Below, piece after piece: positions 33,983 through 34,657 of a stretch of 39,463 bases of DNA (positions are counted from its first letter, which is position 1; every line of letters starts with the position of its first letter). The stretch is from a virus (taxonomy: Duplodnaviria > Heunggongvirae > Uroviricota > Caudoviricetes), in IMG/VR virus record IMGVR_UViG_2531839129_000021; one strand, written 5' to 3'. Made by a program: the position numbers and the translations under genes. The notes under the pieces were generated by a model. That model worked only from the letters and a program-made list of their open reading frames with translations, had not been told where the DNA came from and ran no database searches.

Positions 33983-34324
33983 ATGAGGGGTATTATTTTT
34001 CTGTTAGCTGTCTTTTCTGCGTGCAGCGCGTGGGCGGATGGCTTCACGGTTAAATGCGGTGGCTACACTATGGTTGCAAACCAGGGCGAGTTATCGACAA
34101 TCAACGGTGAAAGAGTTACCTCTCAAAAAATCACCGAACTGGGTACCAATGGTTTGAAAGTAGACATGGGGCTTATGCCTGCCAAAGACGGTAACAACTA
34201 CGGCTTTGAATACATTCGTCGCCCTGGTACCGAAACGCGATTCCTGAATGTCCAACTGCTGCAGAACAGCATGGATGCGCCGAAAATCATCGGTTCCTTT
34301 CCATGCAAAAAGATTGTTGATTAA
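33983..34324 (+). CDS. Secreted protein of unknown function (moron inside the tail cluster)
   Basis: 113-aa ORF with signal peptide MRGIIFLLAVFSACSAWA-DG; AAAGGGGA RBS. Confidence 0.5.
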   Translation: MRGIIFLLAVFSACSAWADGFTVKCGGYTMVANQGELSTINGERVTSQKITELGTNGLKVDMGLMPAKDGNNYGFEYIRRPGTETRFLNVQLLQNSMDAPKIIGSFPCKKIVD

Positions 34325-34377
34325 TCACTCGTAATTATAATGTGGTACTTCTACTTTCACGATAAGGAATTTGTCGC

Positions 34378-34617
34378 ATGTTCGGATTTGATAAATTAAT
34401 AACTCCAAAAATCATCAACGTTCTGTATGGCATCACAATGTTACTTCTGGTTGTTGCCGCCATTATAACGTTTGTTAATGGGAAGGCTGCTGGCGCTTTA
34501 GTGCTTTTGTTATGTGCTGTATTTTGCCGAATATTCTTTGAGTGCATCATGGTTTCATTTAAAAACAATGAGTATCTTCGCCGAATAGCTGAAGCGTTAG
34601 AAGCAAACAAGCAGTAA
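34378..34617 (+). CDS. Small two-helix inner-membrane protein of unknown function (moron)
   Basis: 79-aa ORF with two hydrophobic helices (INVLYGITMLLLVVAAIITFV and ALVLLLCAVFCRIFF); AT-rich; AAGGA RBS; followed by a strong terminator. Confidence 0.5.
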   Translation: MFGFDKLITPKIINVLYGITMLLLVVAAIITFVNGKAAGALVLLLCAVFCRIFFECIMVSFKNNEYLRRIAEALEANKQ

Positions 34618-34635
34618 TGAAACTTCAATAATGAA

Positions 34636-34657
34636 CCCGCCACCCGGCGGGTTTTTT
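34636..34657 (+). terminator. Rho-independent terminator
   Basis: CCCGCC-accc-GGCGGG hairpin followed by TTTTTT. Confidence 0.55.

Follow-up and report, generated by a model that had tools for sequence, protein, structure and literature searches.

The junction between the baseplate hub gene and the baseplate spike gene of a contractile-tailed prophage appears, from the genes that it carries in related genomes, to be a prophage accessory and defense hotspot. The prophage is IMG/VR record IMGVR_UViG_2531839129_000021 (39,463 nucleotides, the whole of which is referred to here as the window). Its junction holds a gene for a 113-amino-acid exported protein, named sp113 (33983..34324, + strand), a gene for a 79-amino-acid, two-helix inner-membrane protein of the DUF4282 family (34378..34617, +), and an intrinsic terminator just ahead of the spike gene (34633..34660, +). 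It is highly probable that these are, respectively, a near-core gene of the tail module, a moron sitting in a variable slot, and a fixed element of the phage backbone. A first-pass annotation had described the region as a two-gene cassette with its own terminator, and its account of the parts was borne out: both open reading frames (ORFs), the signal peptide, the two-helix membrane protein, the AT-richness, the ribosome-binding site (RBS), and the strong terminator were all present at the positions that it gave. The two ORFs are real genes rather than chance ones because profile searches recovered 762 clusters at 90% identity for sp113 and 248 clusters for the DUF4282 subfamily (in both cases from Enterobacterales only and without functional names), and because the ratio of nonsynonymous to synonymous substitution rates (dN/dS) of sp113 was ∼0.17. 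This ratio fell to 0.08 in the C-terminal half, with dS saturated, and by this measure sp113 is under purifying selection.

The organization of the junction was surveyed by comparing the hub protein with one genome per species, which yielded 45 loci with hubs 45 to 96% identical. Taken together with the earlier phage and Escherichia coli loci, both hub and spike were present at 47 loci. An sp113-family gene directly followed the hub gene at 39 of the 47, over hub identities of 47 to 100%, and at 7 of those 39 only 1 to 61 nt lay between sp113 and the spike gene, with no other gene. Three loci (L042, L048, and L052) had the spike directly after the hub, with a gap of 43 to 69 nt, and five had another secreted protein or an sp113 remnant after the hub. 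Unrelated lipoproteins in place of sp113, or remnants, were found at L007, L016, L027, and L038. Whether the gap upstream of the V gene is normally empty had been raised by the first-pass annotation, and in Mu and SfV it is, the hub and V genes abutting or overlapping.

Near-identical tail backbones keep an sp113 homologue after the hub, whereas the next gene differs from genome to genome. For instance, the second slot holds a gene for a 266-amino-acid protein in Yersinia phage YP3, a 138-amino-acid membrane protein in SEN34, a 170-amino-acid protein in vB_EcoM-606R2, a YafO toxin pair in E. coli EC17CM13, and a reverse-strand gene in E. coli FDAARGOS_1289. In CE0021a, a 241-amino-acid lipoprotein replaces both sp113 and the second-slot gene. 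Relatives with hubs of 92 to 98% identity hold cargo other than DUF4282, and across the loci sp113 was accompanied by more than 15 other cargo types or by none. Most of the cargo proteins in the relatives match no family. Among those that could be recognized were the antiphage systems PD-Lambda-1 (E = 3e-82) and PDC-S42 (E = 2e-36), an Mrr-type nuclease (Mrr_cat), the YafO toxin pair, and secreted OB-fold proteins. The defense cargo lies at L034 2830-4059, L033 5503-6372, L025 5480-6328, and L005 3788-4784.

A literature search found no description of a cargo hotspot between hub and spike genes. Rousset et al. (2022, cited in PMC10884400) are said to have reported hotspots of defense systems in P2-like phages and P4-like satellites. 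The hub-spike slot resembles these in that a fixed backbone position exchanges unrelated cargo, known antiphage systems included. It differs in that its phages are of the SEN34/Brunovirus type with lambdoid early genes, and in that the slot lies within the baseplate operon, with a conserved terminator at its end.

The terminator was identified by scanning, folding, and conservation. Its stem spans 34633 to 34654, with a T-run to 34657, and consists of nine pairs (six of them G-C), a 4-nt loop, and a run of six T's. It was listed first, with the most G-C pairs, in a terminator scan of 9.5 kb, and its folding energy was −18.6 kcal/mol (z = −3.4 relative to shuffled sequences). It ends the slot 19 nt ahead of the spike ATG. 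When every spike-upstream region was folded, a hairpin of the form ACCCGC-loop-GCGGG-T6-7 was found at 40 of the 47 loci, with GGAG next and the spike ATG ∼19 nt on. The hairpin was kept whatever the cargo, also at the empty sites L042, L048, and L052; it was absent from YP3 and from all but one of the seven compact hub-sp113-spike loci. Among 39 distinct hairpin sequences, 96% of the cells were paired, and compensatory changes on both sides of the stem were found in 4 of 8 pairs, a level reached by only 0 to 1 of 500 shuffles. These comparisons mark the terminator as what looks to be a fixed backbone element that forms the right border of the cargo slot. The hairpin had been taken for the 79-amino-acid gene's own terminator; since it is common to all cargo types and to the empty sites, it is a feature of the slot rather than of the DUF4282 gene.

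In tail operons of Klebsiella and Edwardsiella, the same stem was found at the end of other inserts. A near-identical 40-nt terminator-plus-RBS junction, ACCCGCTYCGGCGGGTTTTTTATGCCCGGAGGAAAC, stands before a Pantoea myophage spike gene and before Klebsiella siphophage gpM-like genes (L049 5731-5778, L093 to L096 at ∼5249, and L126 to L128 at ∼4249). This shared junction may be either a mobile junction or the product of convergence.

The DUF4282 gene bears the hallmarks of a moron, and for it the earlier view of an accessory gene embedded in a late operon stands; sp113 is near-core and not a moron. The protein matches Pfam PF14110 with an E value of 1.2e-10 (42.2 bits compared to a gathering cutoff of 27) over profile positions 2 to 85 of 86, and RefSeq also annotates the identical protein, WP_000466689.1, as DUF4282. 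It belongs to phrog_12129, a PHROG family of unknown function. Hydropathy places hydrophobic stretches at residues ∼12 to 33 and ∼38 to 60, and in the alignment both ends are conserved (GFDKLITPKI at the N terminus and FKNNEYLRRIAE.LE at the C terminus) and the helices vary. The gene has its own RBS, AAGGA, 9 nt upstream of the ATG. Base composition sets it apart: the GC content is 0.365 to 0.39 at 34300 to 34600 compared to ∼0.53 on either side, and it is 0.364 for the moron unit and 0.375 for the DUF4282 gene compared to 0.519 for the late region. The moron definition, in the sense of Juhala and Hendrix, is thus matched in base composition (0.364 to 0.375 versus 0.52 to 0.55). It is also matched in presence and absence, since the unit, at 99% identity or more, was found in 84 of 5,426 complete E. 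coli genomes and the hub/spike region in 333, whereas sp113, at 39 of 47 loci, does not fit. The opposite strand also has an ORF (34335..34643, −), but since the Pfam match falls on the + strand, this ORF was rejected as a by-product of the AT-richness. A scan with Rfam gave only a subthreshold match to a eukaryotic snoRNA.

Homology to relatives with other cargo stops within the last four to five codons of sp113 and restarts at the terminator, which delimits a moron unit of ∼320 bp (34310..34632, +) from the last sp113 codons to the terminator stem. Thirty-one viral contigs carried a near-identical DUF4282 protein (29 at 100% and two at 99%), and the sp113 alleles beside it were of the window type in 17, of the type of E. 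coli R1 in 12, and of another type in 2. The hub and sp113 proteins of the R1 backbone are, respectively, 47% and 29% identical to those of the window. In R1, the resident sp113 is separated from the moron by a 75-nt remnant of the 3′ end of a window-type sp113 (L004 4001-4075), a footprint of the block transfer of the moron between backbones. As far as genome comparison can establish it, the DUF4282 unit is a single-gene moron that is mobile across at least two backbones.

These observations bear directly on the idea of a cassette, in which the secreted protein and a membrane partner would be acquired and expressed jointly as one functional unit. The two genes are adjacent and co-oriented, and in 57 E. 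coli genomes a single match covers at least 80% of the hub-to-spike region, at ∼96 to 99.8% identity among the matches listed. However, the same DUF4282 unit stands behind sp113 alleles that are only 29% identical, the many other cargo types (or none) found with sp113 show that it does without this partner, some DUF4282 relatives have no sp113 within 5 kb, and the GC content of the two genes is unlike (0.47 for sp113 versus 0.375). A cassette is therefore highly improbable. What varies is only the second slot; sp113 itself is fixed and coupled to the hub gene.

The sp113 gene starts 3 nt past the hub stop codon, with the RBS AAGGGGA, and in relatives it overlaps the hub gene; judged by this spacing, it is translationally coupled to the hub gene. 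The leader reads MRGIIFLLAVFSACSAWA|D, with the signal peptide (residues 1 to 18) encoded by nt 33983 to 34036 and cleavage after AWA. All members of the family have a basic N-region, a hydrophobic core, and a small-x-small cleavage site in the alignments; the export call rests on these leader features as read from the alignments. Cys25 and Cys108 are invariant across the aligned family. The mature protein of ∼95 amino acids was modeled by AlphaFold from 69 diverse sequences as an 8-stranded up-and-down beta-barrel, with a predicted local distance difference test score (pLDDT) of 83; a first model with a pLDDT of 63, from a 33-sequence alignment, was set aside. The leader, the cysteines, and the model together show sp113 to be, by prediction, a Sec-exported, disulfide-bonded, small periplasmic beta-barrel.

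The family is narrow, since an exhaustive profile search over 1.84 billion representatives found only 75. This search gave no tie to any named family; long repeat proteins at E values of 1e-7 to 1e-3 were rejected as kin because they look like chance similarity of the YD-repeat type. The protein matches a PHROG family of unknown function, no sequence match was found in Pfam, NCBIfam, PADLOC, or the PDB, and a Foldseek comparison of the model with viral structures and the PDB gave nothing significant. The barrel also occurs as the C-terminal domain of two lipoprotein representatives, P0367 and P0382. These lipoproteins are 265 to 292 amino acids long, and in them the barrel is preceded by an uncharacterized, ∼190-residue N-domain. 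The replacement lipoproteins of L007 and L027 were compared with these N-domains and are unrelated to them. Among pairs with hubs at least 90% identical, the median identity of the mature sp113 proteins was only 72%, and therefore sp113 alleles are exchanged faster than the hub.

Thus, as read from its conservation, sp113 is genuine and maintained by selection, an accessory protein of the periplasm whose gene forms part of the late operon in this tail family. The gene counts as a near-core accessory of the tail module rather than as a moron or a gene for a virion part, and some lineages do without it. The first-pass annotation had held that neither product looks like a virion component, and this agrees with one product exported to the periplasm and the other predicted to form a membrane hairpin. 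It had set an accessory role against conservation in all related tail clusters together with a need in tail assembly. The position of sp113 is conserved in most relatives, not in all, and nothing suggests that it is needed for assembly; the DUF4282 gene is present in a minority of relatives.

That both proteins are instead assembly factors or structural components of this type of baseplate is very hard to sustain. Such a role could account for the retention of a hub-coupled sp113 under purifying selection at 39 of 47 clusters and for the recurrence of DUF4282 relatives beside tape-measure genes. However, tails assemble in the cytoplasm, and the canonical Sec signal peptide, the two invariant cysteines, and the lipoprotein fusions all point sp113 to the periplasm. 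Moreover, both genes are absent in L042, L048, L052, Mu, and SfV, sp113 has given way to unrelated lipoproteins or a remnant at L007, L016, L027, and L038, and DUF4282 occurs in 84 E. coli genomes compared to 333 with the hub/spike region.

How the two genes might be expressed can be proposed from the motifs present. The consensus promoter scan found no promoter-like site upstream of sp113, which would be transcribed and translated along with the late operon. For the moron, a candidate sigma-70 promoter was found by motif (34314..34341, +), with TTGTTG at 34314 to 34319, a 16-nt spacer, and TATAAT at 34336 to 34341. This TATAAT is the sole perfect one on the + strand between 18.7 and 39.4 kb and lies 36 nt before the DUF4282 start; transcription would begin at ∼34348. 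In a lysogen, this promoter would drive DUF4282, and the terminator would keep moron transcription out of the spike and wedge genes. In the lytic cycle, polymerase modified by Q would pass the terminator. Late transcription could do so because the window encodes a lambdoid Q antiterminator (15073..15561, +; Pfam Phage_antitermQ, E = 9e-25), with NinG upstream and a lysozyme gene downstream.

A possible role for the DUF4282 protein is suggested by where its relatives lie. In 24 of 31 diverged viral loci, the DUF4282 gene is 43 to 60 nt past a TMP_3 tape-measure gene, and at a 25th, a contig of Edwardsiella phage GF-2, it lies directly past the tape measure. The same adjacency was found in Klebsiella and Citrobacter genomes. 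It occurs in a myophage module, before a Dit-like gene, and in a lambda-like siphophage module, before M/L/K/J-like genes. Other relatives were found after lysis cassettes or among insertion sequence (IS) elements. The relatives are consistently AT-rich, with a GC contrast as in the window, and are followed by a terminator.

In the Citrobacter and E. coli elements L114 (2895-7600) and L123 to L125, genes for sheath, tube, chaperone, tape measure, DUF4282, Dit-like protein, and plug, in this order, lead directly into holin, lysozyme, and spanin genes and then host genes, with no hub, spike, or wedge genes downstream. In phage GF-2 (L054 4001-6316), the tail operon is interrupted by a block of an Arc-like repressor and an Ant antirepressor, which lies between the tape-measure and DUF4282 genes on one side and the Dit-like, plug, and hub genes on the other. 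In the Klebsiella siphophage operon, the tape measure has morons on both flanks, since a small lipoprotein gene with the same type of terminator lies just before it (L055 833-1234; L093 ∼2298).

The closest parallel is gene 15 of HK97, reportedly the first moron to be described (Juhala 2000; Cumby 2012; reviewed in PMC3594210). Like the DUF4282 gene, it is short and AT-rich, encodes a small inner-membrane protein, and is inserted in a tail operon. Both are directly followed by an ACCCGC-loop-GCGGG terminator (with T8 in HK97), and in both the next tail gene starts within ∼12 to 19 nt of it. Both are missing from close relatives, and the preference of DUF4282 relatives for tape-measure genes also recalls HK97, where the stem stands right before the tape-measure gene; here the slot is between hub and spike. 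The proteins themselves differ, gp15 having 62 amino acids and being YebO-related, compared to 79 amino acids, two helices, and conserved, presumably cytoplasmic ends for DUF4282. Gp15, an exclusion protein of the inner membrane, blocks genome entry in a manner that depends on the incoming tail (PMC3594210). Exclusion has been demonstrated for gp15; for DUF4282, we infer it. The DUF4282 protein would insert into the inner membrane as a hairpin, its two conserved ends facing the cytoplasm, and might, as HK97 gp15 does, block the entry of a superinfecting genome at the tape-measure/inner-membrane step. By analogy this role is favored because the DUF4282 layout is the HK97 gene 15 design, though it falls short of being probable. 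Since it lies beside tape-measure genes in unrelated tail types, DUF4282 is a good candidate for a general entry-blocking class.

The main competing explanation is that DUF4282 acts on the host rather than on incoming phage, as a lysogenic-conversion or membrane-physiology factor, for example a stress, virulence, abortive-infection, or toxin-like effector. Morons have diverse roles (PMC3594210), and a host factor would sit well with the relatives found after lysis cassettes and among IS elements, with the toxin-antitoxin and nuclease-type systems among the slot cargo, and with a periplasmic loop of only ∼6 residues, which offers little surface to an incoming tail. However, its repeated position right after tape-measure genes in two unrelated tail architectures is more specific than a general host-fitness gene would lead one to expect, and it matches no PADLOC or toxin family. 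A host-directed role is accordingly the lesser possibility, though one to be taken seriously.

For sp113, we tentatively suggest binding and inhibition of a part of the tail tip that penetrates the periplasm, either the spike tip or a muralytic end of the tape measure, though this is more doubtful than the role proposed for DUF4282. Expressed late, the protein would then serve in exclusion or self-protection. In keeping with this, sp113 is predicted to be periplasmic and late, its gene is linked to those of the tail tip, and its alleles are diverse. In relatives, tape-measure homologues bear the annotation of lytic transglycosylases, and the sp113 fold type is also used by periplasmic inhibitors of wall-degrading enzymes, a match that is generic. 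T4 Spackle (an inhibitor of the tail lysozyme gp5) and the lysozyme inhibitors PliC, MliC, and PhiA are, like sp113, small Sec-exported periplasmic proteins; the tape measure of the sp113 tail family has, by annotation, a muralytic end. No sequence relationship was found between sp113 and Spackle, PliC, MliC, or PhiA, and for PliC/MliC there was no match to the Pfam MliC profile or to solved members. T4 Spackle is helical and encoded by an early gene. A second parallel is with T5 Llp and the Cor proteins of phi80, N15, and T1, receptor-blocking exclusion lipoproteins encoded beside tail or receptor-binding genes. Like them, sp113 is envelope-located and tail-linked, with lipoprotein-fused variants and, at some loci, lipoprotein replacements. 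Unlike them, most sp113 proteins are cut by signal peptidase I, and there is no homology.

A different reading would have sp113 serve the phage's own lytic cycle in the envelope, as an auxiliary lysis or release factor or, compare T5 Llp, as a decoy that stops progeny from ejecting into debris. Its apparent expression with the late genes only, no promoter of its own having been found, and its tight linkage, as a periplasmic protein, to the tail-tip genes speak for such a role. However, the gene lies outside the lysis cassette, most members are not lipoproteins, no similarity to spanins or to Llp/Cor was seen, and several lineages dispense with it. This makes a lytic role unlikely, and inhibition of the tail tip is retained as the working suggestion.

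Taken as a whole, the explanation that joins the architecture to the proposed mechanism has a moderately good chance of being correct, and several observations weigh against it. First, the candidate −35 element matches at only three of six positions, which is why the consensus scan does not list the promoter, and the chance of a TATAAT in 50 positions at 36% GC is ∼5%; the moron promoter is for these reasons plausible rather than proven. Second, the hairpin persists at empty sites, which an insulating function does not fully explain. Third, DUF4282 and HK97 gp15 gave no BLASTP alignment at E ≤ 100, the DUF4282 topology rests on a weak positive-inside signal, PADLOC-DB 2.0 has no family at E ≤ 1 for sp113 or the DUF4282 protein, and the literature search returned nothing on DUF4282, nor on STY1064-1067. 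Fourth, sp113 would not protect a lysogen because no promoter of its own was detected. Finally, when its allelic variation was compared with that of the tape-measure C-end, Dit, plug, hub, spike, and wedge proteins, the hub, spike N-domain, Dit, and tape-measure C-end all gave correlations of much the same size (0.69 to 0.76), and no partner was singled out among the only 11 loci that passed the filters.

The broadest form of the proposal is speculative. The hub-spike junction of SEN34-type tail modules would serve specifically for the docking of accessory genes, with an ancient conserved terminator as its marker, and would house two uncharacterized exclusion families directed against the penetration machinery of the tail itself. 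DUF4282 would be a widespread, gp15-analogous blocker directed at the tape measure, the second and larger family of that kind, and sp113, wired into the late operon, would be a novel inhibitor that acts in the periplasm on the spike or on the muralytic end of the tape measure. The architecture marks the junction as what appears to be a previously undescribed accessory and defense hotspot in a common enterobacterial prophage family, and it resolves odd genes among baseplate parts into a layout of near-core periplasmic gene, cargo slot, and conserved terminator. The terminator offers a handle for automated scans of prophage cargo, and the sp113 and DUF4282 families gain concrete, testable roles. 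The result extends the current picture of morons and hotspots and overturns no current ideas. It is ordinary in kind, sp113 being a regular fixture of the phage family and DUF4282 swappable.

The remainder of the window agrees with this setting. Comparison of its ORFs with Pfam, PHROG, and RefSeq identified a prophage with lambdoid regulation and a SEN34/Brunovirus-type contractile tail, in which the tail genes run in the order tape measure, Dit-like protein, Pam3_gp18-type plug, hub, spike, and wedge proteins. Both flanks of the junction are as first annotated. The hub gene on the left (32918..33979, +) matches phrog_196, "baseplate hub," at E = 1e-88 and, weakly, Pfam E217_GP41. The spike gene on the right (34677..35429, +), with the RBS GGAG at 34665 to 34668, has the PF18352 N-domain (E = 6e-44) and an Apex motif and is named "membrane-puncturing spike protein" in RefSeq. 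The tape-measure gene (region 30016-32026) contains a stretch of 10 G's (∼30556-30565) where a +1 frameshift divides it into ORFs 30016..30612 and 30407..32026, compared to a single gene of 662 amino acids in E. coli DEC5E. The split may be either a homopolymer sequencing error or a mark of a defective or phase-variable tape measure.

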